Shown: positions 1,188 to 53,500 of the stretch, piece after piece
Position numbering within the stretch: the first letter of the stretch is position 1
How the letters are laid out: every line of letters begins with the position of its first letter
DNA from: Candidatus Latescibacterota bacterium
GTDB lineage: Bacteria > Latescibacterota > UBA2968
Direction: 5' to 3'
Length of the DNA stretch: 64,000 bases
NCBI GenBank assembly: GCA_965204745.1
Contig: OZ242010.1
Location: forward strand, 3,232,001 to 3,296,000
Made by a program: the position numbers and the translations under genes
Notes under the pieces: model-generated
The model's input: only the letters and a program-made list of their open reading frames with translations
Told to the model about the DNA's origin: nothing
The model's database searches: none

Positions 1188-4100
1188 CTACCGCAAATCC
1201 AGCGCGATGCGTCGTAGCGTACCTTCTGCGCTGGTGATGAGGTCTTCGACATTGGAGCCATCCAAGTTGGCACGCTGAATCTTATCCGGGTACAAGTTCG
1301 TCCAGTACATCTTTCCGCGTCCCACATCCAGCGCGATGCCAACTGGCCTATCCAATCCTGTGGTGATGAGGTCTTCGACATTGGAGCCATCCAAGTTGGC
1401 ACGCTGAATCTTATTCGCTTCAGCGTCCGTCCAGTACATCTTTCCGCGTCCCACATCCAGCGCGATGTCCAATGAGAAACTCAATCCTGTGGTGATGAGG
1501 TCTTCGACATTGGAGCCATCCAAGTTGGCACGATGAATCTTATCCGTGTCAGAGTCCGTCCAGTACATCTTTCCGCGTCCCACATCCAGCGCGATGCTAT
1601 ATGGATTGCTCAATCCTGTGGTGATGAGGTCTTCGACATTGGAGCCATCCAAGTTGGCACGATGAATCTTATCCGTGCCAGGGTTCGTCCAGTACATCTT
1701 TCCGCGTCCCACATCCAGTGCGATGGAAGTTAGAATATTCCAGTTACCGTTTCCGTCAGTGGAGATGGTGTCTTTGACGGTGATGAGGTCTTCGATCTGT
1801 GAGCCATCCAAGTTGGCACGCTTAATCTTAGCCCTGAACAGGCGCTGGAGTGGAAATGGATTGTCCCCAAAGTTCGTATCCTCGTGTGATTCTGTCCAGT
1901 ATATCTTTCCGCTTCCCCCATCCAGCGCGATGCCCGCGTGGCCCCATGCATTACTATTTCCTATGGTGATGAGGTCTTCGATCTGTGAGCCATCCAAGTT
2001 GGCACGCTTAATCTTAAACATGTAATCGGTTATCCAGTACATCTTGGATGGCTTCACCGTGACGCGCACGCCGGTCGAGCAGTTGTTGTTGGTGTTGCTC
2101 TCGCCGGTGACCGCACCCACACACGCGCCGTAGTAATACGTGCCCGTGGTTGAAGGCGCGGTCACGCTACTCGACTGCTCACTCGTCGCCGACGCCGCCA
2201 GCGCGCTTATCGCATCCGACGAGCCAACTTCTGTGTCGCCAGTGGTGATCGTCGCGTCAGACGATTGATAGTAGCGCAGGGTCGTCGCCGTCGCCGGCCC
2301 CGTGCCTTGGTTACGCACCGTCGCGCTTAGCGTGAGCGACTGCCCCGGCGTCGACGTGGTATCGTCCACCGATGGCGATTGCACAACCAGGTCTGGCGCG
2401 CCAACGGTCACTTGGACGCCGGCCGAGCAGTTGTTGCTGACATCGGTCTCGCCGCTGACCGCAGCCACACACGCGCCAAAGTAATACGTGCCCGCGGTCG
2501 CTGGTGCGGTCACGCTACTCGACTGCTCACTCGTCGCCGTCGCCGCCAGCGCGCTTATCGCATCCGACGAGCCGACTTCTGTGTCGCCGGTCGTGATCGT
2601 CGCGTCAGACGATTGGTAATAGCGCAGGGTCGTCGCCACCGCCTCAGCCGTGCCTTGATTACGCACCGTCGCGCTTAGCGTGAGCGACTGCCCAGGCGTC
2701 GGCGTGGTATCGTCCACCGAAGGCGATTGCACAACCAGGTCTGGCGCGCCAACGGTCACTTGGACGCTGGCCGAGCAGTTGTTGCTGACATCGGTCTCGC
2801 CGCTGACTGCTACCACACACGCGCCGTAGTAATACGTGCCCGCGGTTGCTGGTGCGGTCACGCTACTCGACTGCTCACTCGTCGCCGCCGCCGCCAGCGC
2901 GCTTATCGCATCCGACGAGCCAACTTCTGTGTCGCCGGTGGTGATCGTCGCGTCAGACGATTGGTAATAGCGCAGGGTCGTCGCCACCGCCTCAGCCGTG
3001 CCTTGATTACGCACCGTCGCGCTTAGCGTGATCGACTGCCCCGGCGTCGGCGTGGTATCATTCACCGATGGCGATTGCACAAGCAGGTCTGGCGCGCCAA
3101 CGGTCACTTGGACGCTGGCCGAGCAGTTGTTGTTCGTATCGGTCTCGCCGCTGACGCTTGCCACACACGCGCCGTAGTAATACGTGCCGGCGGTTGCTGG
3201 CGCCGTCACGCTACTCGACTGCTCACTCGTCGCCGACGCCGCCAGCGCGCTGATCGCATCCGACGAGCCGACTTCTGTGTCGTCGGTCGTGATCGTCGCG
3301 TCAGACGATTGGTAATAGCGCAGGGTCGTCGCCACCGCCTCAGCCGTGCCTTGATTACGCACCGTCGCGCTTAGCGTCAGCGACTGCCCAGGCGTCGGCG
3401 TGGTATCATTCACCGAAGGCGATTGCACAACCAGGTCTGGCGCACCAACGACCACTTGGACACCGGCCGAGCAGTTGTTGCTGACATCGGTCTCGGCGCT
3501 GACCGCTACCACACACGCGCCGTAGTAATACGTGCCCGCGGTTGCTGGTGCGGTCACGCTACTCGACTGCTCACTCGTCGCCGTCGCCGCCAGCGCGCTT
3601 ATCGCATCCGACGAGCCAACTTCTGTGTCGTCGGTCGTGATCGTCGCGTCAGACGATTGATAATAGCGCAGGGTCGTCGCCGCGGCCTCAGCCGTGCCTT
3701 GATTACGCACCGTCGCGCTTAGCGCGAGCGACTGCCCAGGCGTCGGCGTGGTATCATTCACCGAAGGCGATTGCACAAGCAGGTCTGGCGCGCCAACGGT
3801 CACTTGGACGCTGGCCGAGCAGTTGTTGCTGACATCGGTCTCGCCGCTGACTGCTACCACACACGCGCCGTAGTAATACGTGCCCGCGGTTGCTGGTGCG
3901 GTCACACTACTCGACTGCTCACTCGTCGCCGCCGCCGCCAGCGCGCTGATCGCATCCGACGAGCCGACTTCTGTGTCGTCGGTCGTGATCGTCGCGTCAG
4001 ACGATTGGTAATAGCGCAGGGTCGTCGCCGCGGCCTCGGCCGTGCCTTGATTACGCACCGTCGCGCCTAGCGTAAGCGACTGCCCAGGCGTCGGCGTGGT

Positions 4101-7100
4101 ATCATTCACCGAAGGCGATTGCACAACCAGGTCTGGCGCACCAACGGTCACTTGGACACCGGCCGAGCAGTTGTTGCTGACATCGGTCTCGCCGCTGACG
4201 CTTGCCACACACGCGCCGTAGTAATACGTGCCCGCGGTTGTTGGCGCCGTCACGCTACTCGACTGCTCACTCGTCGCCGACGCCGCCAGGGCGCTGATCG
4301 CATCCGACGAGCCAACTTCTGTGTCGCCGGTCGTGATCGTCGCATTGGTTGAACGGTAATAGCGAAGGGTCGTCGTTGCGGCCTGCCCGGTGCCTTGATT
4401 ACGCACCGTCGCGCGAAGCGTGATCGACTGCTCCGGCGTCGGCGTGGTATCGTCCACCGAAGGCGATTCAACGATCAGGTCAGGAACAACGACCATGACG
4501 CGCACGCCATCCGAGCAGTTGTTGTTCGTCGCACTCTCGGCGCTGACGCTTGCCACACACGCGCCAAAGTAATACGTGCCCACTGCCGCTGGCGCGGTCA
4601 CACTACTCGACTGCTCACTCGTCGCCGACGCCGCCAGCGCGCTTATCGCATCCGCCGTGCCGACTTGCGTGTCGCTGGTGGTGATCGTCGCGTCGGACGA
4701 TTGGTAATAGCGCAGAGTGGTCGCTGTCGCCGTCGCCGTGCCTTGATTACGCACCGTCGCGCGAAGCGTGAGCACCTGCCCCGGCGTCGCCGTGGTCTTA
4801 TCCACCGCAGGCGATTGCACGAGCAGGTCTGGCGCGCCAACGGTCACTTGGACGCCGGTCGAGCAGTTGTTGTTGGTGTTGCTCTCGCCGCTGACCGCAT
4901 CCACGCACGCACCGTAGTAATACGTGCCCGTGGTAGAAGGCGCAGTCACGCTACTCGACTGCACACTCTTCGCCGACACCGCCAGCACGCTTATCGCATC
5001 CGACGAGCCGACTTCTGTGTCGCCGGTCGTGATCGTCGCGTCGGTTGAGCGGTAATAGCGCAGGGTCGCCGCCGCTACCTCAGCCGTGCCTCGGTTGAAC
5101 ACCGTCGCGCTTAGCGTGAACGCCTGCCCTGTCGTCGGCGTGGTATTATCCACCGCAGGCGATTGCACGAGCAGGTCTGGCGCGCCGACGACCACTCGGA
5201 CACCGGCCGAGCAGTTGTTGTTCGTATCGCTCAAGCCCCTGACTAACACACACGCGCCGTAGTAATACGTGCCCGCGGTCAAAGGCGCCGTCACACGACT
5301 CGACTGCTCACTCGTCGCCGACACCGCCAGCGCGCTTATCGCATCCGCCGTGCCGACTTCTGTGTCGCCGGTCGTGATCGTCGCGTCAGACGATTGGTAG
5401 TAGCGCAGGGTCGCCGCTGTCGCCGCCGCCGTGCCTCGATTACCCACCGTCGCGCGAAGCGTGATCGCCTGCCCCGGCGTCGGCGTGGTATCGTCCACCG
5501 ACACCGATTGCACGAGCAAGCCTGGCGCGCCAACGATCACTTGGACGCCGGTCGAGCAGTTGTTGTCGGTGTTGCTCTCGCCGATGCTCGCCACACACGC
5601 GCCGTAGTAATACGTGCCCGCGGTCGCTGGTGCGGTCACACTACTCGACTGCTCACTCGTCGCCGACACCGCCAGCGCGCTTATCGCATCTGCCGTGCCG
5701 ACTTCTGTGTCGCCGGTCGTGATCGTCGCGTCGGACGATTGATAGTAGCGCAGGGTCGTCGTCGCCGCCGCCGCCGTGCCTCGGTTGAGCACTGTCGCGC
5801 GAAGCGTGAACGCCTGCCCCGGCGTCAGCGTGGTATTATCCACCGATGCCGATTGCACAAGCAGGTCTGGGGTACCAACGGTCACCCGGACGCCGGTCGA
5901 GCAGTTGTTGGTGGTGTTGCTCTCGCCGCTGACCGCATCCACACACGCGCCGTAGTAATACGTGCCGGGGATCGCTGCCACGGGCACGCTACTCGACTGC
6001 ACACTCGTCGCTGACACCGCCAGGGCGCTGACTGCGTCCGTGCCGACTTCTGTGTCGCCGGTCGTGATCGTCGCGTCGGCTGAAAGGTAATAGCGCAGGG
6101 TGGTCGTCGTCGCCGCCCCCGTGCCTTGATTACGCACCGTCGCGCTTAGCGTAAGCGACTGCGCCGTCGCCGCCGTGGTCTTATCCACCGATGGCGATTG
6201 CACGACCAGGTCTGGCGCGCCAACGGTCACCCGGACGCTGACCGAGCAGTTGTTGCTGGTATCTTTCTCGTTGCTGACCGCAACCACACACGCGCCGTAG
6301 TAATACGTGCCGGGGATCGCTGACACGGGCACGCTGCTCGACTGCACACTCGTCGCCGACACCGCCAAGGCGCTTATCGCATCCGCCGTGCCGACTTCTG
6401 TGTCGCCGGTGGTGATCGTCGCGTCGGCTGAGAGGTAATAGCGCAGGGTCGTCGCCGCGGACGTCGCCGTGCCTCGATTGCGTACCGTCGCACGTAGCGT
6501 GATCGACTGCCCAGCCGTCGGCGTGGTATTATCCACCGATGGCGATTGCACGAGCAGGTCTGGCGCGCCGACGACCACTCGGACGCCGGCCGAGCAGTTA
6601 TCGCTCGAGCCCCTGACCGCTAACACACACGCGCCGTAGTAATACGTGCCCGCGGTCGCTGGCGTCGTCACACTGCTCGACTGCACACTCGTCGCTCCCA
6701 CCGCCAGGGTGCTTATCACATCCGCCGTGCCGACTTCTGTGTCACCGGTGGTGATCGTCGCGTCGGACGATTGGTAATAGCGCAGGGTCGCCGCTGTCGC
6801 CGCCGCCGTGCCTCGATTACCCACCGTCGCGCGAAGCGTGATCGACTGCCCCGGCGTCGGCGTGGTGTTACTCGCCGTCAGCGATTGCACGAGCAAGCCT
6901 GGCGCGCCAACGATCACTTGGACGCCGGCCGAGCAGTTGTTGCTGGTATCTTTCTCGCCGCTGACCGCAGCCACACACGCGCCGTAGTAATATGTGCCCG
7001 TAGCCGCTGGCGCGGTCAGACGAACCGAGGTATCAAGGCCGTTGCGGGCCGCCAAGCGGTTCACACTATCCGTGCCGACTTCTGTGTCGCCGGTGGTGAT

Positions 7101-8774
7101 CGTCGCGTCGGTTGAGCGATAATAGCGCAGGGTCGTCGCCGCCGCCTCAGCCATGCCTTGATTGTGAACCTTCGCGCTTAGCGTGAGCGACTGCCCCGGC
7201 GTCAGCGTGGTATTATCCACCGATGCCGATTGTACGACCAGGTCTGGCGCGCCAACGACCACTCGGATGCCAGTCGAGCAGTTGTTGCTGACATCGGTCT
7301 CGCCGCTGACCGCAGCCACACACGCGCCGTAGTAATACGTGCCAGCACTCAAAGGCGCGGTCAGAAGGATCGATTCCAAACCCGTGCCCGAAGCCGAAAG
7401 CACGCTGACTGCGTCCGTGCCCACAGACCTATCGCTGGTCGCGATCGTCGCGTCGGACGATTGATGATAACGCAAGGTCGTCGCGGCTGATGGCCCCGTG
7501 CCCCGGTTGCGAACGGTGGCTTGCAGGGTGAAGGATTGACCGGGCGTCAGCGTGCTATCGCTGACCGACGGTGCTTCAACGATCAGATCCGGACTGCGAC
7601 TCCCACCACCGCCACCACCACCGCCACCGACTGTCACGCGCACGCCGGTCGAGCAGTTGTTGCTGGTATCTTTCTCGTTGCTGACCGCAGCCACACACGC
7701 GCCGTAGTAATACGTGCCCGGGGTCAAAGGCGCGGTCAGAGGGATCGATTCCAAACCCGTGCCCGAAGCCGAAAGCACGCTGACTGCGTCCGTGCCCACA
7801 GACCTATCGCTGGTCGCGATCGTCGCGTCGGACGATTGATGATAACGCAAGGTCGTCGCGGCTGATGGCCCCGTGCCCCGGTTGCGAACGGTGGCTTGCA
7901 GGGTGAAGGATTGACCGGGCGTCAGCGTGCTATTGCTGACCGACGGCGCTTCAACGACCAGATCCGGACTGCGACTTCCGCCACCAGAAGGGGGTACTGA
8001 CTTGCCATAACTGCTGGCAAAACTCAGAAAATCCTGAAAGTCTATCGCGCCATCGCTATTCAAATCGTACTTCGCTTCGTATCTGCTATCCCCGCGCCGG
8101 GCGCCATATTGCGCGACAAACGCCAAGAAATCGGGAAAGTCCACCTTCCCATTGCCATTAAAATCGGGCGTGGAAGTCGTCGGAACATTAAACGAGATCC
8201 GGCTTGTCGTGGTGAGCGTATCGCTCGAGGACAAACTTTCAGAAAGCGTCACCAACCCAAGACCAATGGAAAATTCCCGGCCCGTAACATCGGGCGCCGT
8301 GGTGAACTCTGCCCGTGCCAGAAAACCCGACGACGCCAAACGAACCGGCGAAAACGCCGCGAAGTCCGTGCCCGTCGGTTGTGGCACGTTAAAGACAAAC
8401 GCGCGGTTCTCCGCTTTGACAAAGGTCAACAGAGTCGCATCAAAGGCAAACTGAAGTTGCATGCCGATCAAAGATGTGGTCACGCCGGTTGCAAAAACCT
8501 CAATGGCAATCGTATCTCGTCCAGACGCGGTGCCTGATGTGACTTCATTATCTCTCTGATCGCCCGCGCCGCCATTGGGAATCAGATCGAGCGACACCCG
8601 CGCATTGGCATTGGCACCAGCGGCAACTTTCGCGCGCCGTTCAGAAATCGGGGAAGATTCCCCTGTGCCCGCGCCGCCTTGGGCATCCGGTTCGGCTGCG
8701 ACTTGATAGACCACAAAGACCAACGCTGTGAGCGCGGTCATACACAAGCCCGTTGACAAAATCAGTTTACGCAT
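1188..8774 (-). CDS. Giant secreted modular protein A: signal peptide, cohesin-like domain, paired EF-hand/dockerin-like motif, 17 CARDB (Ig-like) repeats, C-terminal 6-bladed YWTD (LDL-receptor class B) propeller
   Basis: ORF of about 2528 aa with an AAGGAG RBS. Contains DFNGNGKVDFPDF and DLNSDGAIDFQDF EF-hands, 17 PDL/PGL..GQS.TL.ATVRN.GT...TYYYGACV..NNCS units and six KMYW(T)D-type repeats. Confidence 0.9.
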   Translation of the reverse strand: MRKLILSTGLCMTALTALVFVVYQVAAEPDAQGGAGTGESSPISERRAKVAAGANANARVSLDLIPNGGAGDQRDNEVTSGTASGRDTIAIEVFATGVTTSLIGMQLQFAFDATLLTFVKAENRAFVFNVPQPTGTDFAAFSPVRLASSGFLARAEFTTAPDVTGREFSIGLGLVTLSESLSSSDTLTTTSRISFNVPTTSTPDFNGNGKVDFPDFLAFVAQYGARRGDSRYEAKYDLNSDGAIDFQDFLSFASSYGKSVPPSGGGSRSPDLVVEAPSVSNSTLTPGQSFTLQATVRNRGTGPSAATTLRYHQSSDATIATSDRSVGTDAVSVLSASGTGLESIPLTAPLTPGTYYYGACVAAVSNEKDTSNNCSTGVRVTVGGGGGGGGGSRSPDLIVEAPSVSDSTLTPGQSFTLQATVRNRGTGPSAATTLRYHQSSDATIATSDRSVGTDAVSVLSASGTGLESILLTAPLSAGTYYYGACVAAVSGETDVSNNCSTGIRVVVGAPDLVVQSASVDNTTLTPGQSLTLSAKVHNQGMAEAAATTLRYYRSTDATITTGDTEVGTDSVNRLAARNGLDTSVRLTAPAATGTYYYGACVAAVSGEKDTSNNCSAGVQVIVGAPGLLVQSLTASNTTPTPGQSITLRATVGNRGTAAATAATLRYYQSSDATITTGDTEVGTADVISTLAVGATSVQSSSVTTPATAGTYYYGACVLAVRGSSDNCSAGVRVVVGAPDLLVQSPSVDNTTPTAGQSITLRATVRNRGTATSAATTLRYYLSADATITTGDTEVGTADAISALAVSATSVQSSSVPVSAIPGTYYYGACVVAVSNEKDTSNNCSVSVRVTVGAPDLVVQSPSVDKTTAATAQSLTLSATVRNQGTGAATTTTLRYYLSADATITTGDTEVGTDAVSALAVSATSVQSSSVPVAAIPGTYYYGACVDAVSGESNTTNNCSTGVRVTVGTPDLLVQSASVDNTTLTPGQAFTLRATVLNRGTAAAATTTLRYYQSSDATITTGDTEVGTADAISALAVSATSEQSSSVTAPATAGTYYYGACVASIGESNTDNNCSTGVQVIVGAPGLLVQSVSVDDTTPTPGQAITLRATVGNRGTAAATAATLRYYQSSDATITTGDTEVGTADAISALAVSATSEQSSRVTAPLTAGTYYYGACVLVRGLSDTNNNCSAGVRVVVGAPDLLVQSPAVDNTTPTTGQAFTLSATVFNRGTAEVAAATLRYYRSTDATITTGDTEVGSSDAISVLAVSAKSVQSSSVTAPSTTGTYYYGACVDAVSGESNTNNNCSTGVQVTVGAPDLLVQSPAVDKTTATPGQVLTLRATVRNQGTATATATTLRYYQSSDATITTSDTQVGTADAISALAASATSEQSSSVTAPAAVGTYYFGACVASVSAESATNNNCSDGVRVMVVVPDLIVESPSVDDTTPTPEQSITLRATVRNQGTGQAATTTLRYYRSTNATITTGDTEVGSSDAISALAASATSEQSSSVTAPTTAGTYYYGACVASVSGETDVSNNCSAGVQVTVGAPDLVVQSPSVNDTTPTPGQSLTLGATVRNQGTAEAAATTLRYYQSSDATITTDDTEVGSSDAISALAAAATSEQSSSVTAPATAGTYYYGACVVAVSGETDVSNNCSASVQVTVGAPDLLVQSPSVNDTTPTPGQSLALSATVRNQGTAEAAATTLRYYQSSDATITTDDTEVGSSDAISALAATATSEQSSSVTAPATAGTYYYGACVVAVSAETDVSNNCSAGVQVVVGAPDLVVQSPSVNDTTPTPGQSLTLSATVRNQGTAEAVATTLRYYQSSDATITTDDTEVGSSDAISALAASATSEQSSSVTAPATAGTYYYGACVASVSGETDTNNNCSASVQVTVGAPDLLVQSPSVNDTTPTPGQSITLSATVRNQGTAEAVATTLRYYQSSDATITTGDTEVGSSDAISALAAAATSEQSSSVTAPATAGTYYYGACVVAVSGETDVSNNCSASVQVTVGAPDLVVQSPSVDDTTPTPGQSLTLSATVRNQGTAEAVATTLRYYQSSDATITTGDTEVGSSDAISALAATATSEQSSSVTAPATAGTYYFGACVAAVSGETDVSNNCSAGVQVTVGAPDLVVQSPSVDDTTSTPGQSLTLSATVRNQGTGPATATTLRYYQSSDATITTGDTEVGSSDAISALAASATSEQSSSVTAPSTTGTYYYGACVGAVTGESNTNNNCSTGVRVTVKPSKMYWITDYMFKIKRANLDGSQIEDLITIGNSNAWGHAGIALDGGSGKIYWTESHEDTNFGDNPFPLQRLFRAKIKRANLDGSQIEDLITVKDTISTDGNGNWNILTSIALDVGRGKMYWTNPGTDKIHRANLDGSNVEDLITTGLSNPYSIALDVGRGKMYWTDSDTDKIHRANLDGSNVEDLITTGLSFSLDIALDVGRGKMYWTDAEANKIQRANLDGSNVEDLITTGLDRPVGIALDVGRGKMYWTNLYPDKIQRANLDGSNVEDLITSAEGTLRRIALDLR

Positions 8775-9173
8775 CACTCGCTCCTTGTGAAAGTTTGGGC
8801 GACTTTAGAATAGGCGTCGCCCGAAGCCTTTACTGCATTCCCCCTCAATGAGCACGCACGCACCGAAAGATAAAAGTGCGGTAAATACTGAATATTTTTT
8901 ATTTTTCGGTGATTTTTTTCATGTCTTATAGAGAGGGAAGCGAAACTGACAAGAGGTGTGTCTGCCCAGTTCAACCCTCGGTTGACCGCTCGACCAACGC
9001 GAGACAACCCCACCCTCGGAGACAGCTCCACGGCCGCACGCTTCGTTGTGCTCGGTCGCCGCGGTCAATCTGCACGGGCGGGCTTATTGCTTCAGGCGTG
9101 CCAGATGTCGGCGTTCACGCCGTGACGCTACAAAGGCTTGTGCCGTTATCGGCTCTTTCTCGCCACCTACCGG

Positions 9174-12100
9174 TTAGGGCAACCCGTCAATCCTGTAATC
9201 GTTGCCCACCCGAGTCCCTCTAAATCCGTTCAAATTGAAGCTGCGAATGCACAACCTGCCGCTACCGAAGGGAGTATAAACGACGCACCCACCGCCGACA
9301 TTTCTAAACTCTCCACCGCTGATCTGACAACTCTGGTTAGGACGCACGACCAGCCCCACCCTGCAAGCACCGAGACTGCCACTGCCGCCACCACCGCCAC
9401 CGCCACCACCACCGCCGCTACTCACCGTAACGCGCGCGGCATCCGAGCAGTTGTTGGTGGTGTTGCTCTCGCCGCTGACGCTTGCCACGCACGCGCCGTA
9501 GTAATACGTGCCCGCACGCGACGGCGCAGTCAGACGGATCGATTCCCTACTGGTCGCCGAAGCCGAAAGACCGCTGACCGAATCTGTGCCCACTTCTGTA
9601 TCGCTCGTGGAGATCGTCGCATTGGACGAGCGATAATAGCGCAAGGTCGTTGCGGCTGACCGAGCCGTGCCGCGATTGCGGACTGTGGCATTCAGGGTGA
9701 AGGATAGACCGCTGGACGAGCTGGTCGAAAGCGATTCAACGATCAGGTCAGGACGACCACTGCCACTGCCACTGCCACCGCCACTACCGCCACTCTGAAA
9801 ACTTGCGTGAACGGTATAGCTTCCAGTCTCTGACGAGCCATACCCTCGTACTGCGATGTAGTAGGTCCCCGCACTCACAGAGCGTGCTATGCTGAAATTC
9901 GTACCACTTCCGTCATCGTCATCGGTTTCCAAAGTGGTGCCGGAACTGCTTTGCAACGTACCATAAGTATCGGTGTTGCCTGTCGTATAAACCGTCAAGG
10001 TGCCAGAACGGCTGACTTGCACCCTGAAGTAATCAACATCGCCGCCGGTTTCTATCCGCCCAGAGCGTGAGCCACCCAAAGACAGGCTGGTCGCGCCAGA
10101 TCGGGTATTGCTGTGATCATCGCTACCGCCACCACCCCCGCCACCGCCACCACCACCCCCGCCAGTCACCGTAATGCGCACGGCATCCGAGCAGTTGTTG
10201 TCGGTGTTGCTCTCGCCGCTGACGCTTGCCACGCACGCGCCGTAGTAATACGTGCCCGCACGCGACGGCGCAGTCAGACGGATCGATTCCCTACTGGTCG
10301 CCGAAGCCGAAAGACCGCTGACCGAATCTGTGCCCACTTCTGTATCGCTCGTGGAGATCGTCGCATTGGACGAGCGATAATAGCGCAAGGTCGTTGCGGC
10401 TGACCGAGCCGTGCCCCGGTTGCGGACTGTGGCATTCAGGGTGAAGGATAGACCGCTGGGCGAGCTGGTCGAAAGCGATTCAACGATCAGGTCAGGACGT
10501 CCACTGCCACCGCCACCGCCACCACCACCACTGCCGCTACTCACCGTGACGCGCACGCCTGTTGAACAGTTGTTGTCGGTATTGCTCTCGCCACTGACGC
10601 TTGCCACGCACGCACCGTAGTAATACGTGCCGGGGATCGCTGACACGGGCACGCTACTCGACTGCACACTCGTCGCTGACACCGCCAAGGCGCTTATCGC
10701 ATCCGCCGTGCCAACTTCTGTGTCGCCGGTGGTGATCGTCGCGTCGGCTGAGAGGTAATAGCGCAGGGTGGTCGCCGTCGCCGCTGCCGTGCCTCGGTTG
10801 AGCACCGTCGCACGTAGCGTGATCGACTGCCCAGCCGTCGGCGTGGTATTATCCACCGATGGCGATTGCACAACCAGGTCTGGCGCGCCAACGACCACTC
10901 GGACACCGGCCGAGCAGTTATCGCTCGAGCCCCTGACCGCTACCACACACGCGCCGTAGTAATACGTGCCCGCACGCGACGGCGCAGTCAGACGGATCGA
11001 TTCCCTACTGGTCGCCGAAGCCGAAAGACCGCTGACCGAATCCGTGCCCACTTCTGTATCGCTCGTGGAGATCGTCGCATTGGACGAGCGGTAGTAGCGC
11101 AAGGTCGTTGCGGCTGACCGAGCCGTGCCGCGATTGCGAACTGTGGCGCGCAGGGTGAAGGATTGCCCAGGCGTCAAGGTGCTATCGCTGACCGAAGGCG
11201 ATTCAACGATCAGATCGGGAAGACTGATACTACCGGTCCCCTGAGTATCCAGCGCGATGCCACCTGGCGTAGTCAATCCTGTGGTGATGAGGTCTTCGAC
11301 ATTGGAGCCATCCAAGTTGGCACGCTGAATCTTATCCGTGCCATTGTCTGTCCAGTACATCTTTCCGCGTCCCACATCCAGCGCGATGCCCAATGGCGTA
11401 GTCAATCCTGTGGTGATGAGGTCTTCGACATTGGAGCCATCCAAGTTGGCACGCTGAATCTTATCCGTGCCATTGTCTGTCCAGTACATCTTTCCGCGTC
11501 CCACATCCAGCGCGATGCCCAATGGCGTAGTCAATCCTGTGGTGATGAGGTCTTCGACATTGGAGCCATCCAAGTTGGCACACTGAATCTTCTCCGTGCC
11601 CCAGTCTGTCCAGTACATCTTTTCGCGTCCCACATCCAGCGCGATGCCTTCTGGTGTCCTCAATCCTGTGGTGATGAGGTCTTCGACATTAGAGCCATCC
11701 AAGTTGGCACGCTGAATCTTCTCCGTGCCAGTGTCCGTCCAGTACATCTTTCCGCGTACCACATCCAGCACGATGCCAACTGGCGTAGTCAATCCTGTGG
11801 TGATGAGGTCTTCGACATTGGAGCCATCCAAGTTGGCACACTGAATCTTATCCGTGCCAGCGTCCGTCCAGTACATCTTTCCGCGTACCACATCCAGCGC
11901 GATGCCAACAGGTGTCCTCAATCCTGTGGTGATGAGGTCTTCGACATTGGAGCCATCCAAGTTGGCACGCTGAATCTTCTCCGTGCCAGTGTCTCTCCAG
12001 TACATCTTCGGCGTACCAACCCCGCCACCGCCACCGCTACTCACCGTGACGCGCACGCCCTCCGAGCAGTTGTTGTCGGTGTTGCTCTCGCCGCTGACGC

Positions 12101-13763
12101 TTGCCACGCACGCGCCGTAGTAATACGTGCCTGAACCCGACGGCGCAGTCAGACTGATCGATTCCGAACCCGTGCCCGAAGCGGACAGACCGCTGACCGA
12201 ATCTGTGCCCACTTCTGTATCGCTCGTGGCGATCGTCGCGTCGGACGAGCGGTAGTAGCGCAAGGTCGTTGCGGCTGACCGAGCCGTGCCCCGATTGCGA
12301 ACGGTGGCTTGCAAGGTGAAGGATTGCCCAGGCGTCAAGGTGCTATCGCTGACCGACGGCGATTCAACGATCAGATCGGGACTACTACTACCGCCACCGC
12401 CGCCACCGCCACCACTGACCGTGACGCGCACGGCATCCGAGCAGTTGTTGTTGGTGTTGCTCTCCCCGCTGACGCTTGCCACGCACGCGCCGTAGTAATA
12501 CGTGCCGGTACTCGACGGAGCAGTTAGACTGATCGATTCCGAACCCGTGCGAGAAGCCGAAAGCCCGCTCACGCTATCCGTGCCCACTTCTGTATCGCTC
12601 GTGGAGATCGTCGCATTGGACGAGCGGTAGTAGCGCAAGGTCGTCGAGGCTGATTGCCCCGTGCCCCGATTGCGAACGGTGGCTTGCAAGGTGAAGGATT
12701 GCCCAGGCGTCAAGGTGCTATCGCTGACCGACGGCGATTCAACGATCAGATCGGGACTGCTACTGCCACCAGGAGGTGGAGGAGGCGGTACTGGGCTGCC
12801 ATAACTGCCGGCAAAACTCAGAAAATCCCGAAAGTCTATCGCGCCATCGCTATTCAAATCATACTTCGCTTGGTATCTGCTATCCCCGCGCCGGGCACCA
12901 TATCGCCCTGCAAACGCCAAGAAGTCGGGAAAGCCTACCGTGCCATCGCCGTTAAAATCGGGTGTGGGACCCATCGCATTAAAAGTCAATGGCGTCGCCG
13001 CGGTGAGCATATCCGTCTCACCAATATTAGTGCCATCCGCCACATTTATGCTGGCACTAACTGTGAATTCGGTACCTGTTACATCAGAAACTGTCGTAAG
13101 CGTAACCGTTCCCAAATAGCCGTTGGGCAGGGCAACGCCCGGTGGGAAACCACCAAACGAGACAGTTCTTGCGGTAGTCCCAAGAACCGACAACCCCGGC
13201 GTAGCCGCCGCACTTTTGACGGTCAGCCTATTCGTATCAATGGAAAACGCACCACCGATAATTGGGCCTGCCAACCCCGTGATAAACACCTCGACGACAA
13301 CATCGGTACCAGCACCTGCAACAGTGCCCGATTTATTCCCATCATCCCTTTTAGGATCGCTGGCATCGATGTCCAAGTCCAAAGACAGAACGGCATTGGC
13401 ATTGGGACCGGCGGCAACTTTCGCGCGCCCTATGACGTCATCCGCGCTGTGCGTGGGTTCATCCTCGGCGATGCGTTCAAGATACAGGGTCATATTGGCA
13501 TTGGCACCGGCGGCAACTTTCGCGCGCCCTATGACGTCATCCGCGCTGTGCGTGGGTTCATCTTCGGCGATGCGTTCAAGATACAGGGTCATATTGGCAT
13601 TGGGACCGGCGGCAACTTTCGCGCGCCGTTCAGCAATCGGGGAAGATTCCCCTGTGGTCGCGCCGCCTTGGGCATCCGGTTCGGCTGCGACTTGATAGAC
13701 CACAAAGACCAGCGCTGTGAGCGCGGTCATCAACAGGCCTGTTGACAAAATCAGTTTACGCAT
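9174..13763 (-). CDS. Secreted modular protein B: signal peptide, 2 x 33-aa repeat, divergent cohesin-like domain, EF-hand pair, 2 CARDB, YWTD x6, 3 CARDB, PPC domain, CARDB, Cys-containing C-terminal domain
   Basis: ORF of about 1529 aa. Shares the N-terminus and upstream region of gene A. The PPC-like unit reads DDHSNTRSGAT...GDVDYF...DDDDGSGTNF...GTYYIAV. Confidence 0.9.
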   Translation of the reverse strand: MRKLILSTGLLMTALTALVFVVYQVAAEPDAQGGATTGESSPIAERRAKVAAGPNANMTLYLERIAEDEPTHSADDVIGRAKVAAGANANMTLYLERIAEDEPTHSADDVIGRAKVAAGPNANAVLSLDLDIDASDPKRDDGNKSGTVAGAGTDVVVEVFITGLAGPIIGGAFSIDTNRLTVKSAAATPGLSVLGTTARTVSFGGFPPGVALPNGYLGTVTLTTVSDVTGTEFTVSASINVADGTNIGETDMLTAATPLTFNAMGPTPDFNGDGTVGFPDFLAFAGRYGARRGDSRYQAKYDLNSDGAIDFRDFLSFAGSYGSPVPPPPPPGGSSSPDLIVESPSVSDSTLTPGQSFTLQATVRNRGTGQSASTTLRYYRSSNATISTSDTEVGTDSVSGLSASRTGSESISLTAPSSTGTYYYGACVASVSGESNTNNNCSDAVRVTVSGGGGGGGGSSSPDLIVESPSVSDSTLTPGQSFTLQATVRNRGTARSAATTLRYYRSSDATIATSDTEVGTDSVSGLSASGTGSESISLTAPSGSGTYYYGACVASVSGESNTDNNCSEGVRVTVSSGGGGGVGTPKMYWRDTGTEKIQRANLDGSNVEDLITTGLRTPVGIALDVVRGKMYWTDAGTDKIQCANLDGSNVEDLITTGLTTPVGIVLDVVRGKMYWTDTGTEKIQRANLDGSNVEDLITTGLRTPEGIALDVGREKMYWTDWGTEKIQCANLDGSNVEDLITTGLTTPLGIALDVGRGKMYWTDNGTDKIQRANLDGSNVEDLITTGLTTPLGIALDVGRGKMYWTDNGTDKIQRANLDGSNVEDLITTGLTTPGGIALDTQGTGSISLPDLIVESPSVSDSTLTPGQSFTLRATVRNRGTARSAATTLRYYRSSNATISTSDTEVGTDSVSGLSASATSRESIRLTAPSRAGTYYYGACVVAVRGSSDNCSAGVRVVVGAPDLVVQSPSVDNTTPTAGQSITLRATVLNRGTAAATATTLRYYLSADATITTGDTEVGTADAISALAVSATSVQSSSVPVSAIPGTYYYGACVASVSGESNTDNNCSTGVRVTVSSGSGGGGGGGGSGRPDLIVESLSTSSPSGLSFTLNATVRNRGTARSAATTLRYYRSSNATISTSDTEVGTDSVSGLSASATSRESIRLTAPSRAGTYYYGACVASVSGESNTDNNCSDAVRITVTGGGGGGGGGGGGGSDDHSNTRSGATSLSLGGSRSGRIETGGDVDYFRVQVSRSGTLTVYTTGNTDTYGTLQSSSGTTLETDDDDGSGTNFSIARSVSAGTYYIAVRGYGSSETGSYTVHASFQSGGSGGGSGSGSGRPDLIVESLSTSSSSGLSFTLNATVRNRGTARSAATTLRYYRSSNATISTSDTEVGTDSVSGLSASATSRESIRLTAPSRAGTYYYGACVASVSGESNTTNNCSDAARVTVSSGGGGGGGGGGGSGSLGACRVGLVVRPNQSCQISGGEFRNVGGGCVVYTPFGSGRLCIRSFNLNGFRGTRVGNDYRIDGLP

Positions 13764-13980
13764 CACTCGCTCCTTGTGAAAGTTTGGGCGACTTTAGAAT
13801 AGGCGTCGCCCGAAGCCTTTTCAAAAAGCGCGATCTCCACGCCCCCCGAACACTGAGCCACACAACAACAACAACGCAAGACAACCCAATCGTATGCACA
13901 AGCCCTCGCAACAGGCTCCTACCTTCAGAGGACGCTACAAAGGCTTGTGCCGTTATCGGCTCTTTCTCGCCACCTACCGG

Positions 13981-43600: not shown

Positions 43601-43982
43601 AGGTGAGAGGCGAGAGGGGAGAGGCGAGAGGCGAGAGGCGAGAGGCGAGAGGCGAGAGGCGAGAGGGCATGGAAGGACATAGCGGCGGGGAATTGGGACC
43701 TACCCCCCTAACCCCCCCTTCCTGCAAGGAAGGGGGGAACGCGGATGGGTTTTGCGAAGGGATGGTGTGAGGGATCTTTAATCGCTTTATGCCCTCGGTC
43801 AATGCCATCAGCTCAACCAGAGCGAGAAGCCATCAAAGGAGCTTTACTCCCCTTTCCTCGTAGGAAAGGGGCCGGGGGATAGGTCCCCTCGCGCAATGCC
43901 ATCAGCTCAACCAGAGCGAGAAGCCATCAAAGGAGCTTTACTCCCCTTTCCTCGTAGGAAAGGGGCCGGGGGATAGGTCCCC
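43599..43982. repeat. (gaggcga)n heptamer run plus a family A element whose 3' half is tandemly duplicated
   Basis: About nine gaggcga-type units at 43599-43667. The element spans 43695-43887 and its 3' part is repeated to 43982. Confidence 0.85.
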
Positions 43983-44043
43983 GGGCGCAGTGGGAATAGA
44001 GGCAAGATGGGATTTTAGCCACAAAAGGCACAAGAGGTGCAAA

Positions 44044-46552: not shown

Positions 46553-46570
46553 TCGCTTTTACAAATTCGG

Positions 46571-47521: not shown

Positions 47522-50500
47522 ATGACATCCCATTATCTCCGTTTTCTGTCCCTTCCAACATGGATCGCCGTGTTGGTCATGCCCTTGCTGATCGCCCCCG
47601 CGACAGCGCAGACGACACCACTGGTGAGCAGCGGGGGCGACACGCTCAAGATGTACTGGACGGACACTGTCACGGATAAGATTCAGCGTGCCAACCTCGC
47701 TGGCTCCAATGTCGAAGACCTCATCACCACAGGATTGAGAGATCCAGTTGGCCTCGCGCTGGATGTGGGGGGCGGAAAGATGTACTGGGTGGACTGGGGC
47801 ACGGATAAGATTCAGCGTGCCGACCTCGATGGCTCCAATGTCGAAGACCTCATCACCACAGGATTGACGAATCCAGCTCGCATCGCGCTGGATGTGGGGG
47901 GCGGAAAGATGTACTGGACAGACTTTGGCACGGATAAGATTCAGCGTGCCGACCTCGATGGCTCCAATGTCGAAGACCTCATCACCACAGGATTGAGAGA
48001 TCCAGTTGGCATCGCGCTGGATGTGGGGGGCGGAAAGATGTACTGGACGGACCTTGGCTCTGGCACGAGTAAGATTCAGCGTGCCGACCTCGATGGCTCC
48101 AATGTCGAAGACCTCATCGCCACAGGATTGGGTAATCCATCTGGCCTCGCGCTGGATGTGGGGGGCGGAAAGATGTACTGGACGGACGTTACCACGTCTA
48201 AGATTCAGCGTGCCGACCTTTCTGGCTCCAATGTCGAAGACCTCATCACCACAGGATTGAGTCAGCCATATGGCATCGCGCTGGATGTGGGGGGCGGAAA
48301 GATGTACTGGACGGACCTTGGCACGGCTAAGATTCAGCGTGCCGACCTTTCTGGCTCCAATGTCGAAGACCTCATCACCACAGGATTGAGTAGGCCATCT
48401 GGCCTCGCGCTGGATAAACCGACGGTGACATTGGCACTGTCGCCCTCGTCGATTTCTGAGGCTGGTGGTGTTGCGACGGTGAGCGCGAAGCTGTCGCATC
48501 GGTCGGCGGCGGCGACAACAATCACGGTGCGCCCCGTGACCGGTGCTTACACGGTGGGGTCGGATTCGACGATCACCATCGCGGCGGGGACACGACGAAC
48601 GCGTCGGACACGGTGGTCATCACGGCGGTGAACAACACGACCGATGCACGGTGGGGTCGGATTCGACGATCACCATCGCGGCTGGGGACACGACGAACGC
48701 GTCGGACACGGTGGTCATCACGGCGGTGAACAACACGACCGATGCACCGGACAAGCGCTTAGGCGTGTCTGGCACGGTGGCAGGCGACGATGTGGCATCG
48801 ATGGCTTCCGGGACCCTGACGATCACAGACGATGAAGCCTCGCCGGATGTGACGCTGATGCTGTCGCCCTCGTCCATCTCGGAGGCTGGCGGTGTTTCGA
48901 CGGTGAGCGCGGTGCTGTCGCGTCCGTCGAGTGAGGCGACCACGATCACGGTGCGCCCCTTAGCCAATGCCTACACGGTGGGTCAGGATTCGACGATCAC
49001 CATTGCGGCTGGGGACACGACGAACGCGTCGGACACGGTGGTCATCACGGCGGTGAACAACACGACCGATGCGCCGAACAACGATGTGACCGTGTCCGGT
49101 GTGGCACGCAACGATCAAGGCGTGGGCAGTGTGACCGGTGCGGCTTTGACGCTGGATGACGATGAAGCCTCGCCGGACGTGACGCTGATGCTGTCGCCCA
49201 CGTCGATTTCTGAGGCTGGTGGTGTTGCGACGGTGAGCGCGACGCTCTCGCGTCCGTCGAGTGAGGCGACCACGATCACGGTGCGCCCCTTAGCCAATGC
49301 CTACACGGTGGGTCAGGATTCGACGATTGCCATCGCGGCCGGGCAAACGGCGAACACGTCGGACACGGTGGTGGTCACGGCGGTGGACAACGCCCAATAC
49401 GAGCTTGATCGCGCCGTGACCGTGTCCGGTGTGGCAAGCAACGACCATGGCGTGGGCCGTGTGACCGGTGCGGCTTTGACGCTGGAAAACGATGACGCGT
49501 CCAAGATGTACTGGACAGACGCTGGCACGGATAAGATTCAGCGTGCCAGCCTCAATGGCTCCCAGGTCGAAGACCTCATCACCGCAGAATTGGAGAGTTC
49601 ATGGGGCATCGCGCTGGATGTGGGGGGCGGAAAGATGTACTGGACGGACAGGGACGCGAATAAAATTCAGCGTGCCGATCTAAATGGCTCCAATGTCGAA
49701 GACCTCATCACCACAGGATTGAGTTCGCCACGGGGCATCGCGCTGGATGTGGGGGGCGGAAAGATGTACTGGGTGGACGCCGGCACGGATAAGATTCAGC
49801 GTGCCGACCTCGATGGCTCCAATGTCGAAGACCTCATCGCCACAGGATTGAGTTCGCCACGGGGCATCGCGCTGGATGTGGGGGGCGGAAAGATGTACTG
49901 GACGGACGCCGGCACGGATAAGATTCAGCGTGCCGACCTCGATGGCTCCAATGTCGAAGACCTCATCACCACAGGATTGAGTTCGCCACGGGGCATCGCG
50001 CTGGATGTGGGGGGCGGAAAGATGTACTGGACGGACGATGGCAGGAATAGGATTCAGCGTGCCGACCTCGATGGCTCCAATGTCGAAGACCTCATCACCA
50101 CAGGATTGAGAGATCCAGTTGGCATCGCGCTGGATGTGGGGGGCGGAAAGATGTACTGGACGGACAGGGACGCGAATAAAATTCAGCGTGCCGATCTAAA
50201 TGGCTCCAATGTCGAAGACCTCATCACCACAGGATTGGATAATCCAGTTGGCATCGCGCTGTTTCAACCGACGGTGATTTTGGCACTGTCGCCCACGTCG
50301 ATTTCTGAGGCTGGTGGTGTTTCGACGGTGAGCGCGACGCTCTCGCGTCCGTCGAGTGCGGCGACCACGATCACGGTGCGCCCCGTGGCCAATGCCTACA
50401 CGGTGGGTCAGGATTCGACGATCACCATCGCGGCTGGGGACACGACGAACGCGTCGGACACGGTAGCGATCACGGCGGTGGACAACGGTCAATACGAGGT

Positions 50501-53500
50501 TACTCGCGCCGTGACCGTGTCCGGTGTGGCAAGCAACGATCAAGACGTGGGCAATGTGACCGGTGCGGCTTTGACGCTGGAAGACGATGATGCGCCCAAG
50601 ATGTACTGGATGGACGCTGACACGGATAAGATTCAGCGTGTCAACATTGATGGCTCCTACGTCGAAGACCTCATCACCACAGGATTGGATGGGCCATATA
50701 GCATCGCGCTGGATGTGGGGGGCGGCAAGATGTACTGGACGGACACTACCACGGATAAGATTCAGCGTGCCGACCTCGATGGCTCCAATGTCGAAGACCT
50801 CATCACCACAGGATTGGGTGATCCAAGTGGCATCGCGCTGGATGTGGGACGCGGAAAGATGTACTGGATGGACGCTAGCACGAATAAGATTCAGCGTGCC
50901 GACCTCAATGGCTCCAATGTCGAAGACCTCATCACCGCAGGATTGAGGTATTCAGGTGGCATCGCGCTGGATGTGGGGGGCGGAAAGATGTACTGGACGG
51001 ACAGGGCCGCGGCTAATATTCAGCGTGCCGACCTCGATGGCTCTAATGTCGAAGACCTCATCACCACAGGATTGGATGGGCCATTTGGCATCGCGCTGGA
51101 TGTGGGACGCGGAAAGATGTACTGGACGGACATTGTCACGGATAAGATTCAGCGTGCCGACCTCGATGGCTCCAATGTCGAAGACCTCATCACCACAGGA
51201 TTGGGTAATCCATTTGGCATCGCGCTGGATGTGGGACGCGGAAAGATGTACTGGACGGACAATGTCACGAATAAGATTCAGCGTGCCGACCTCGATGGCT
51301 CCAATGTCGAAGACCTCATCACCACAGGATTGACTACGCCAAATGGCATCGCGCTGGATAAACCGACGGTGACATTGGCACTGTCGCCCACGTCGATTTC
51401 TGAGGCTGGTGGTGTTGCGACGGTGAGCGCGAAGCTGTCGCATCTATCGAGGGATGCGACAACAATCACGGTGCGCCCCGTGACCGGTGCTTACACGGTG
51501 GGGTCGGATTCGACGATCACCATCGCGGCTGGGGACACGACGAACGCGTCGGACACGGTGGTCATCACGGCGGTGAACAACACGACCGATGCACCGGACA
51601 AGCGCTTAGGCGTGTCTGGAACGGTGGCAGGCGACGATGTGGCATCGCTGGCTTCCGGGACCCTGACGATCACAGACGATGAAGCCGCGCCTACCGTGAC
51701 GCTGATGCTGTCGCCCTCGTCCATCTCGGAGGCTGGCGGTGTTTCGACGGTGAGCGCGACGCTCTCGCGTCCGTCGAGTGAGGCGACCACGATCACGGTG
51801 CGCCCGGTGACCGGTGCTTACACAGTGGGTCAGGATTCGACGATTGCCATTGCAGCCGGGCAAACGGCGAACACGTCGGACACGGTGGTGGTCACGGCGG
51901 TGGACAACACACAAGACGAGGTTAATCGCGCCGTGACCGTGTCCGGTGTGGCGCGCAACGCCCAAGGCGCGGGCAGTGTGACCGGGGCGACTTTGACGCT
52001 AACCGATGATGACGCGACGCCGACGCTGAGTATTGCTTCTGCGAGTGTGGATGAGGGCGCCACTGGGGAGACGCCATCCCTTGAGTTCATCGTCTCGTTG
52101 AGCGCGGCGAGTGGGAAGGTAGTGACGGTGGGCTATGCAGACGCGACTAGCGGGACCGCGACTTCGGGCACGGACTACACCGCAATCACTGCCGGCACGC
52201 TGACGTTCGCGGCGGGTGTGACGCGCAATACCATTGCGGTGTCCGTCACCGGTGACAACACCGCCGAGCCGAATGAGACCGTGAGCGTGACGCTGAGCAA
52301 TCCTGTCAATGCGACCTTCACCGGCGGGAGCGCGACCCTCACCAGTAGCGGGACGATCACCGATGATGACACGACGCCGAGGCTGAGTATTAGTTCTCCG
52401 ACTGTGGCCGAGGGGAGCGGTTCCTCATCCCTTGAGTTCATCGTGACGTTGAGTGTAGCCAGTGGTCAGCAAGTCACGGTGGACTATGAGGACGCGGGCA
52501 CCGGTACCGCGACTTCGGGAGATGACTACACCGCAATCACTGCTGGCACGCTGACCTTAGCGGCTGGCGTGACGAGCGATACCCTTGCCGTGGGCGTTCT
52601 CGCCGATGCCCTCGATGAGGAGAATGAGACCGTGGTCGTCGAGTTGAGCAATCCTGTCAATGCGACGATCAACACGGCGACCGGCACCGGAACGATCACC
52701 GATGATGACGACGAGCCGACGTTGAGTATTGCTTCTGCGAGTGTGGCCGAGGGCACCACTGGCGCCACGCCGTCGCTTGAGTTCATCGTGACGTTGAGCG
52801 CGGCAAGTGGTCGGCAAGTGACGGTGGACTATGAAGACGCGGGCACCGGTACCGCGACTTCGGGCACGGACTACACCGCAATCACTGCTGGCACGCTGAC
52901 CTTAGCGGCTGGCGTGACGAGCGATACCCTTGCCGTGACTGTCCTCGGCGATGCCCTTGACGAGGATGATGAGACCGTGATCGTGACGCTGAGCAGTGCG
53001 AGCAATGCGGCGATAAGCACGGCGACCGGCACCGGAACGATCACCGATGATGACGCCCCGCCGACGTTGAGTATTGCTTCTGCGAGTGTGACCGAGGGTG
53101 ACGCTGGGGAGACGCCATCGCTTGAGTTCATCGTCTCGTTGAGCGCGGCGAGTGGGAAGGTAGTGACGGTGGGCTATGCGGACGCGACTAGCGGGACCGC
53201 GACTTCGGACACGGACTACACGGCAATCACTGCTGGCACGCTGACGTTCGCGTCAGGTGTGACGAGAGATACCCTTGCCGTGTCCGTCACCGGTGACGAC
53301 ACCGCTGAGTCGGATGAGACCGTGATCGTGACGCTGAGCAATCCGAGCAATGCGACCCTCAGCGGCGGGGGCACGACCCTCACCGGCACCGGGACGATCA
53401 CCAATGATGACGGCGTGCCGAGGCTGAGTATTAGTTCTCCGACTGTGGCCGAGGGGAGCGGTTCCTCATCCCTTGAGTTCATCGTGATGTTGAGTGTAGC

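Follow-up and report, generated by a model that had tools for sequence, protein, structure and literature searches.

How can dozens of repeats in one bacterial genome stay nearly identical in DNA, silent sites included, and still differ from one another in the same few codons? The question is raised by a 64,000-nucleotide stretch of Candidatus Latescibacterota bacterium (assembly GCA_965204745.1, contig OZ242010.1, positions 3,232,001 to 3,296,000), called the window here, which encodes six propellers of the YWTD type (Pfam family Ldl_recept_b). Each propeller has six blades, giving 36 blades in the window when the sequence is cut at the K-M/I-Y-W anchors. The pattern is probably the outcome of concerted evolution together with strong diversifying selection on the putative binding face of a rigid six-bladed YWTD scaffold.

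On the reverse strand, propeller P06 (1191-2045) is at the C-terminal end of gene A, P07 (11235-12008) is internal to gene B, and P08 (15709-16533) belongs to gene C. On the forward strand, P09 (47648-48427) is found in open reading frame (ORF) D, and P10 (49503-50276) and P11 (50598-51371) are both found in ORF E. All six had been located in an initial annotation of the window, which described each as exactly six repeats of about 129 bp. The positions and the six blades are confirmed. The length of 129 bp does not hold for blades 1 and 2 of gene A or for blades 2, 3, and 5 of gene C, which carry loop insertions. Tandem Repeats Finder reports the 129-bp arrays with 88-93% matches, variable codons included. 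Ldl_recept_b is matched in 4/4 proteins scanned against Pfam (B, C, D, and E, but not gene A), with E-values of 4.4e-37 to 3.8e-103 and 5-6 stretches per propeller. In 7/7 further propeller proteins of the genome, PF00058 is matched as well.

The blades are built on two constant DNA blocks, quoted earlier as almost identical among copies, and these blocks are real. Block 1 (51 nt) is present within 3 mismatches in 31/36 blades, 14 of them exact. Block 2 (36 nt) is present within the same limit at 30/30 blade junctions, 21 of them exact. Shuffled sequence gives 0 for both. Over the 27 scaffold codons of the 36 window blades, the proportion of synonymous differences (pS) is 0.081 and that of non-synonymous differences (pN) is 0.058. 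Scaffold pS is 0.030 within genes A-C when blades A_1, A_2, and A_6 are excluded. Many scaffold codons (AAG, TAC, ATT, GGC, GAA, GAC, CTC, ATC, and CTG) are identical in 36/36 blades, even at the third base.

At six other codons of the same blades, pN is 0.611. These hypervariable codons encode residues 7, 8, and 10, which follow YWTD, and residues 31, 32, and 34, in TTGLxxPxG, of the 43-residue blade. Two variable windows had been described before; both exist and are better delimited by these six positions. In the standard blades of the whole genome, each position takes 10-15 kinds of residue, among which D, G, S, R, T, N, Y, and W are frequent and K is nearly absent. Lesser variation is found on the other face of the blade, at residues 16, 18, 21, 41, and 42, with an entropy of 0.9-1.5 bits vs. 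2.3-3.6 bits at the hypervariable sites. Both the codon-level pN and pS and the per-site entropy bear out the proposed architecture of a framework with hypervariable loops.

The family extends well beyond the window. An nhmmer profile made from 29 standard window blades was run on the 5.48-Mb one-contig genome (G000) and gives 144 blade matches in 24 arrays, located at about a dozen places within ~17 ORFs. A search of the rest of the genome, as the initial annotation had suggested, therefore brings the number of propellers to 24. Six intact blades are found in 22/24 arrays. As to individual arrays, P02 has five blades, P04 and P24 are circularly permuted, P24 is also degenerate, and P21 has one frameshifted blade. 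Of 94 standard blades, 93 are unique. Rates were estimated from 91 of the 144 blades, namely the standard 43-residue blades without stop codons after three register-shifted ones had been dropped. In this set, scaffold pS is 0.093 and hypervariable pN is 0.575. Nucleotide diversity at codon positions 1/2/3 is 0.53/0.60/0.41 for hypervariable codons and 0.074/0.018/0.073 for the scaffold.

Selection on the loops is indicated by similar blades. For the 34 blade pairs separated by only 5-8 nt, the average number of non-synonymous differences in hypervariable codons is 3.97 nt per pair, and that of synonymous differences in the scaffold is 0.59. In 459 pairs where at most one of 81 scaffold bases is different, 83% of the hypervariable codons still differ; 416 of these 459 pairs are formed by blades of different propellers. 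Are the loops simply older than the scaffold? This does not seem to be the case, because the same residue is encoded by a different codon in only 11.6% of pairs at hypervariable sites (6.6% at scaffold sites), and because codon choice per residue is fixed. At hypervariable sites Gly is GGC in 43/43 cases, Val is GTT in 15/15, and Tyr is TAT in 12/12, while the scaffold Tyr is TAC in 91/91.

A pair of recent gene duplicates shows where change has accumulated. Gene A has a paralogue 1.07 Mb away (G000 4298486-4306360), and the two are 96.7% identical over the first 6.7 kb, the stalk side. Between them, pS and pN are 0.039 and 0.006 in the N-terminus and 0.065 and 0.021 in the stalk, and 388 of the 400 nt downstream are identical. 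In the propeller, pS is 0.175, pN is 0.191, and 27 codons are gapped; the changes are clustered in patches of the loops. Equivalent blades have one scaffold difference and 4-5 changed codons per loop, often with 2-3 bases changed per codon. The stalk and the flanks have been kept in these duplicates, and the head has strongly diverged.

Where are the variable residues located in the protein? The gene B propeller (11235-12023) was modeled with AlphaFold2 from an alignment of the six window propellers. The best of five models is confident, with a predicted local distance difference test score (pLDDT) of 93.6 and a predicted TM score (pTM) of 0.91, while the other four score 45-72. With Foldseek, this model matches LRP6 (3s8z, TM 0.91), LRP4 (3v64, 0.90), nidogen (1npe, 0.89), and LDLR (1ijq, 0.85), and also ApoER2 and megalin. 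Over these animal YWTD propellers the TM score is 0.85-0.91, the root-mean-square deviation is 1.5-2.4 A, and the identity is 25-35%. The predicted fold is a six-bladed propeller superposable on solved YWTD domains.

In the model, the four strands of a blade are at residues 1-6 (KMYWxD), 11-16 (KIQRAN), 23-26 (EDLI), and 33-39 (PxGIALD). The loop that joins strands 2 and 3 (residues 7-10) contains residues 7, 8, and 10. Residues 31 and 32 are in the loop leading from strand 4 to strand 1 of the next blade (residues 27-32), and residue 34 is where that strand begins. In a sheet of up-and-down topology, the 2-3 and 4-1 loops come out at the same end, that is, on one face. The two remaining loops, 1-2 (VGRG) and 3-4 (LDGSNV), are at the opposite end and show little variation. 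The strand topology of the confident model thus supports the earlier proposal that both variable windows are on one face. With three hypervariable residues per loop, this predicted face has 36 variable residues per propeller, arranged around the central channel.

In animal YWTD propellers, the top face is the interaction surface for nidogen-laminin and LRP6-DKK1. The accessible text of PMC5452030 describes the same face as the interaction surface in LDLR and ApoER2. By the usual convention and by analogy with LDLR and ApoER2, the variable face would be the ligand-binding "top" face. A few codons per repeat thus have an excess of amino-acid change, and they are on what is predicted to be an interaction surface.

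Blades also appear to have been exchanged within and between loci. Two 2-nt markers only 12 nt apart (Leu17 TTG/CTC and Asn21 AAT/CAG) occur in all four combinations, in 29, 37, 9, and 5 blades, which violates the four-gamete rule. Among scaffold codon-site pairs, 60/171 are incompatible. Blade P10_2 is a mosaic: its codons 1-29, rare markers included, are as in P10_6, and its loop 2 is as in P10_3 and P10_4. Blade P12_3 is identical to P15_2. These four-gamete violations and mosaic blades support the suggestion that recombination occurs through the constant blocks.

The two loops of a blade are nearly unlinked. Loop 2 is identical in DNA in 22 blade pairs, vs. 2.4 expected, and in these pairs loop 1 differs by 4.3 nt on average, vs. 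5.3 nt in all pairs. Combinatorial reshuffling of the loops had been put forward; as the main source of diversity it is not supported. There are 76 distinct DNA variants of loop 1 and 74 of loop 2 in 91 blades, and most loops have no donor in G000. In the 91 blades, reassortment from a loop pool yields 0 four-combination squares and 3 three-combination cases. Since most loops are unique, shuffling of a limited pool is not the main source. Loop changes come as contiguous patches with perfect flanks, as between P06_3 and P19_3. P09_3 and P10_5 have 7 changes, all within 19 nt, and are identical over the remaining 108 nt.

In the mechanism that we propose, the propellers would be ligand-binding heads on one rigid scaffold, each blade giving two short loops to one face. 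Blades and whole propellers would be duplicated, and homologous recombination or gene conversion would exchange them both inside a locus and across loci. Such exchange and duplication would keep the scaffold DNA nearly identical, a regime of birth and homogenization. Diversifying selection on short loop patches, acting on multi-nucleotide replacements and indels, would make nearly every blade unique. We infer that the loops are driven by selection and not by a mutator. As to targets, our guess is variable surface molecules of the host, of phages, or of neighbors in the sponge.

Several points weigh against this explanation. Four-fold degenerate third positions are ~3 times more diverse in hypervariable codons than in the scaffold, and a difference in age, or a locally raised rate of mutation or patch replacement, may contribute. 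Positive selection was estimated by pairwise counting on repeats that recombine. A test of the pairwise homoplasy index (PHI) type, a check proposed in the initial annotation, is significant for all 91 blades (0/5000 permutations), but once the terminal blades are removed, which leaves 77, it is no longer significant (P = 0.12, or 0.30 when each codon contributes a single site). The signal is traced to linked terminal-blade linkers; for this reason the case for exchange relies on the multi-nucleotide four-gamete and mosaic evidence. The location of the hypervariable residues on one face, as the model shows it, rests on topology and on the customary naming of propeller faces. Finally, plain concerted evolution does not explain why scaffold pS between this genome and a second species of the genus (G016) is below that of the flanks.

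Propeller DNA is matched in 28/31 related genomes, and a protein search gives 3758 relatives among 8000 scored candidates. The named loci retrieved by the propeller (60 loci, several phyla) are mostly from metagenome-assembled genomes (MAGs) of Latescibacterota and Poribacteria. The scaffold/hypervariable pattern recurs in G016, where 38 standard blades have a scaffold pS of 0.104 and a hypervariable pN of 0.586. Two G016 loci (L026 and L029) have uninterrupted arrays of 12 and 11 blades, respectively, which represent either two propellers without a linker or a change in blade number.

Between G000 and G016, scaffold pS is 0.120, while the background is 0.33-0.37 in two housekeeping ORFs and, for the propeller genes themselves, 0.26-0.57 in their N-terminal parts. 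The latter values reject a transfer of whole genes between G000 and G016. Against G003, scaffold pS is 0.475 over a background of 0.56-0.59, and this near-background divergence indicates that there is no general constraint on the silent sites. It is 0.359 against G018 (background 0.15-0.26) and 0.252 against G020, which is from another family and is represented by 5 blades only. A 24-nt scaffold word (with up to 2 mismatches) has 116 copies in G000, 50 in G016, 4 in G018, 4 in G005, and 0-2 in the other 17 genomes of the genus. Note that G018, with only 4 copies, is the nearest by housekeeping genes among the four relatives compared. Judged by these sequence comparisons, one DNA version of the scaffold is common to some lineages beyond vertical expectation. 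G000 and G016 may share it through exchange of the module between lineages or through lineage-specific selection on the DNA.

This sharing brings in the best surviving alternative, which is nevertheless rather unlikely. In this strong form of the idea of the initial annotation, the constant DNA blocks may themselves be selected as homology anchors for the exchange of loop patches, within the genome and with strains and species in the sponge, so that diversity comes mainly from a population-wide pool. The patchwise changes with perfect flanks and the near absence of linkage between loops 1 and 2 would be expected, and loops without a donor in G000 would fit a pool outside it. The G000-G016 scaffold pS, well below that of the N-terminal parts of the same genes, and the concentration of the scaffold word in G000 and G016 among the genomes of the genus, G018 included with the poor ones, point in the same direction.

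Public sequencing runs bear on the same alternative. A housekeeping stretch of the window is found in 17 runs of 7 studies, sponge metagenomes among them, which supports the presumed sponge association. Contigs from four runs were compared with the window; they measure ~100 nt, and roughly half can be placed at two sites. Two samples have contigs that start in the linker ahead of P11 blade 1 and depart from the window at 50611, 50616/50617, 50620/50621, and 50626; the codons concerned are 5, 7, 8, and 10 and no others. A third sample is identical to the window. These differences hint at allelic loop variation, though with contigs so short and often ambiguous they may be of paralogous origin.

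Against exchange through anchors stand the absence of a four-way reassortment square, the non-significant strict PHI test, and a scaffold that is near background elsewhere, as in G003. The third bases of the hypervariable codons are also largely frozen, which fits recent change in place. We would give a similarly low chance to the stronger form of the idea, in which the constant blocks are recombination anchors of a diversity system independent of reverse transcriptase (RT), and the propeller is a horizontally spreading, self-homogenizing binder module whose patches are exchanged across strains and species of the same sponges. What keeps such an RT-independent system in consideration is the ~3-fold lower silent divergence of the G000-G016 scaffold relative to the flanks, together with the distribution of the scaffold word and the patchwise change of the loops.

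A much less probable explanation is a dedicated targeted mutator, a diversity-generating retroelement (DGR) or another system, which rewrites the loop codons. Very low divergence of the scaffold goes together with saturated loops, and the ~3-fold excess at four-fold third positions would also fit. Variation is mostly at the first two codon positions, and the third base is largely fixed (NNC, NNT/NNG). This is superficially like the AAY-to-NNY design of DGRs, which, as far as the accessible text of PMC10907252 goes, focus variation on the first two bases of a small number of codons within a ligand-binding domain and may have many targets per genome. However, the sole RVT_1 match in the genome is a single-gene, retron-type RT-Toprim at G000 5010687-5012423 (L001:1369-3105). 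It is a defense gene (PADLOC RT-Toprim_I-C, E = 1.8e-218) and is ~1.7 Mb away.

Adenines are not more variable than other bases: of the 29 consensus adenines that are not in hypervariable codons, 20 show an invariance of 97% or more, and the minor-allele frequency is 0.056 for A vs. 0.080 for C and 0.055 for G. The loops have indels, the fold is neither a C-type lectin nor an Ig domain, and neither a DGR RT nor a template repeat is found. With a retron RT-Toprim as the only RT, no adenine bias, and indels in the loops, a DGR is rejected. A mutator of another kind faces the same indels, and the arrays (24/24) are in-frame within long ORFs with no template-like orphan copy.

In the pilE/pilS and vlsE systems, variable segments are located between conserved blocks and are moved by gene conversion. 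Unlike those systems, the present family has no archive of promoterless cassettes. A search for silent cassettes, as suggested earlier, finds none in the genome: all 144/144 matches are in the 24 arrays within ~17 ORFs, with no orphan, promoterless, or silent-cassette blade copy. Antigenic variation from silent cassettes is therefore rejected, every array being inside a long ORF.

The weakest alternative, that no adaptive process is involved and that the pattern comes from recent amplification with neutral loop drift or from an assembly artifact, can appeal to propeller loops being generally the least constrained parts and to the genome having been assembled from a metagenome, with two or more propeller genes broken in frame, but it is scarcely credible: neutral drift is rejected because loop sites should then be as diverse as silent scaffold sites (~0.07-0.09), ~7 times below the observed 0.53-0.60 (pN 0.58-0.61), 91/91 standard blades are free of stop codons, a collapsed or chimeric assembly would not yield 93 different in-frame blades of 94, and the same architecture is found in independent assemblies (28/31 related genomes, 60 loci in named MAGs of several phyla, and 3758 database proteins).

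Concerted evolution with diversifying selection on the loops has a known counterpart in fungi. The accessible texts of Paoletti et al. 2007 (PMC1805685) and Dyrka et al. 2014 (PMC4986451) describe the WD40 repeats of the nwd/het-e/het-d genes of Podospora anserina. These repeats evolve in concert, both inside each of ten loci and across them, and diversifying selection acts on four codons of each repeat, located on the interaction surface. To the extent of those texts, the two families are alike in having propeller repeats of about 42 residues with nearly identical DNA, and a few diversifying codons per repeat (four in Podospora, six here) on the interaction face, which is a predicted one here. 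Both are multigene families in which repeats are exchanged inside loci and across them, here on the evidence of mosaics and markers. The level of repeat identity typical of such fungal NOD-like receptors (NLRs), above ~85% in DNA, is also found here (88-93% matches, scaffold pS 0.03-0.09).

There are also differences. The present proteins belong to the YWTD fold family, are bacterial, and are predicted to be secreted or at the surface, while those of Podospora are cytoplasmic. No NACHT or NB-ARC NTPase domain is found among the Pfam matches of 11 propeller proteins, unlike in the Podospora NLRs, and there is no repeat-induced point (RIP) mutagenesis. The number of blades is six in 22/24 arrays of this genome, which may set it apart from Podospora, where repeat number is polymorphic according to the same partial sources; arrays of 11 and 12 blades do occur in G016. 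The scaffold DNA is common to another species (G016), again unlike in Podospora. We classify the family as a variant of a known evolutionary regime and not as a new mechanism.

Like the YWTD-EGF propellers of animals (LDLR, LRP4, LRP5/6, ApoER2, megalin, and nidogen), the bacterial ones match Ldl_recept_b, have YWTD in strand 2, and have six blades. Unlike them, they are not followed by an EGF module: no EGF family is found among the Pfam matches of the same 11 proteins, and Gly-rich linkers, CARDB or Ig-like units, or a stop codon follow the propellers. Blades within one propeller are near-identical here and diverged in animals. The partner domains also differ from those of the animal proteins and include CARDB, Calx-beta, dockerin-like, kinase, and peptidase domains.

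In Poribacteria, also sponge symbionts, Kamke et al. 2014 (PMC3909097) report tandem repeats of the LDL-receptor class B domain in proteins with predicted transmembrane helices or signal peptides. The accessible part of that paper remarks that knowledge of these domains in bacteria is close to nil. That part reports the presence of the domain; the DNA-level conservation of the repeats and the hypervariable positions are added here. The poribacterial MAG loci retrieved here have the same pattern of conserved scaffold and variable loops. Their propellers are internally homogeneous (pS 0.13-0.20) with variable loops, while against G000 scaffold pS is 0.68-0.84 and pN is 0.07-0.19, meaning that the same protein scaffold is written in different codons. 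Such a pS rejects a recent transfer of DNA from Poribacteria. Copies from Planctomycetota, Spirochaetia, and Caldilineaceae are not homogeneous (pS 0.42-0.66), but the same positions vary. The figures for all four groups are from 3-8 standard blades per locus. A full-text literature search, which covers few subscription journals and no supplements, found no description of bacterial YWTD propellers with a scaffold conserved at the DNA level or with hypervariable loops; within it, the earlier impression that the pattern had not been described is upheld.

What do these propellers sit on? Wherever a propeller ORF is whole, it has a signal-peptide or anchor-like N-terminus. Together with the Pfam domains, this supports the suggested display on CARDB or Calx-beta stalks. 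Gene A (1188..8777, reverse strand, 2529 aa) has, as read from its translation, a signal/anchor N-terminus, dockerin-like Ca loops, stalk repeats, and the C-terminal propeller. Its stalk consists of a 348-bp unit in 15.2 copies (2068-7343) and a 375-bp array (7269-7985), both reported by Tandem Repeats Finder. These units look, by eye, like the CARDB units of gene B. Gene B (9174..13766, reverse strand, 1530 aa) has six CARDB domains, a PPC domain, and the internal propeller. Its Pfam matches are CARDB (3.3e-70), Ldl_recept_b (8.1e-61, 6 stretches), PPC, and a weak Dockerin_1. Gene C (13981..17895, reverse strand, 1304 aa) has CARDB, two PPC domains, and the propeller in its Pfam matches.

ORF D (47522..48631, forward strand, 369 aa) consists of a signal peptide and a propeller and is the 5' part of a gene broken at 48550-48747. 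ORF E (48543..54476, forward strand, 1977 aa) has P10 and P11 between Ig-like stalk units, followed by five Calx-beta domains and a dockerin-like C-terminal duplication. Its Pfam matches are Ldl_recept_b (3.8e-103, 12 stretches) and Calx-beta (3.6e-55). At the break, Tandem Repeats Finder and direct reading of the sequence give a tandem duplication of ~98 bp (48550..48747, forward strand; period 98, 2.0 copies, 99% matches) whose copies differ by 1 nt. The length is not a multiple of three, and with the 1-nt difference it places ORFs D and E in different frames. The two ORFs are one three-propeller gene that has been split. Another split propeller gene is found at G000 4562487-4568137, with a frameshift in blade P21_5.

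Other architectures are found elsewhere in the genome by Pfam. They include a small protein with a dockerin-like domain and a propeller, a protein carrying CARDB units with five propellers between them, a propeller ahead of a C-terminal leishmanolysin-like (M8-type) peptidase domain, and Pkinase with a propeller. P20 is within an ORF of 6368 residues. The Ser/Thr kinase fusion (G000 2540606-2542798; L004:2606-4798) has a circularly permuted propeller, which starts at strand 4 and ends with KIQRANIPR. This C-terminal, kinase-linked propeller is the presumed sensor domain. A remnant is found at G000 5180254-5180877. The same type of fusion is also found in G018 (L014), and the database relative P0026 has the same layout.

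The window has further repeats. CARDB-like stalk units of 348-375 bp form tandem repeats with 86-95% matches at 2068-7985, 12015-12771, and 19233-20763, and the ORF at 18864-22400 (reverse strand) has CARDB-like stalk repeats without a propeller. Just after the signal anchors of genes B and C are tandem repeats of 99 bp (13395-13627) and 93 bp (17561-17776), respectively, which encode a repeated segment 'ERIAEDE..THSADD..RAKVAAG'. An intergenic tandem repeat of 94 bp (2.1 copies, 96% matches) is located at 43792-43989. Intergenic elements of ~60-65 nt (~30357-30416, 34052-34118, and 41622-41683) match dozens of places in G016 and G018 with 80-98% identity. They look like dispersed repeats of the repetitive extragenic palindromic (REP) or miniature inverted-repeat transposable element (MITE) type.

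The roles of the "eukaryote-like" repeat proteins of sponge symbionts are mostly guesses. In this family, by contrast, 24 heads with 144 blades and ~36 variable residues per head on one predicted face show an evolutionary pattern that clearly marks a recognition repertoire. A regime that combines strong internal conservation with hypervariable sites is extended from cytoplasmic fungal NLRs to bacterial proteins predicted to be secreted or kinase-linked, and to a new fold. The pattern is also present in a second symbiont phylum, Poribacteria. A question is posed as well, namely why the silent sites of the scaffold are common to species beyond the genome background. If the RT-independent anchor system were true, it would give bacteria a population-level repertoire of receptors made of a framework and hypervariable loops. 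The exact residues are now named for studies of host, phage, or neighbor recognition, and the propeller offers a regular natural scaffold for binder engineering.

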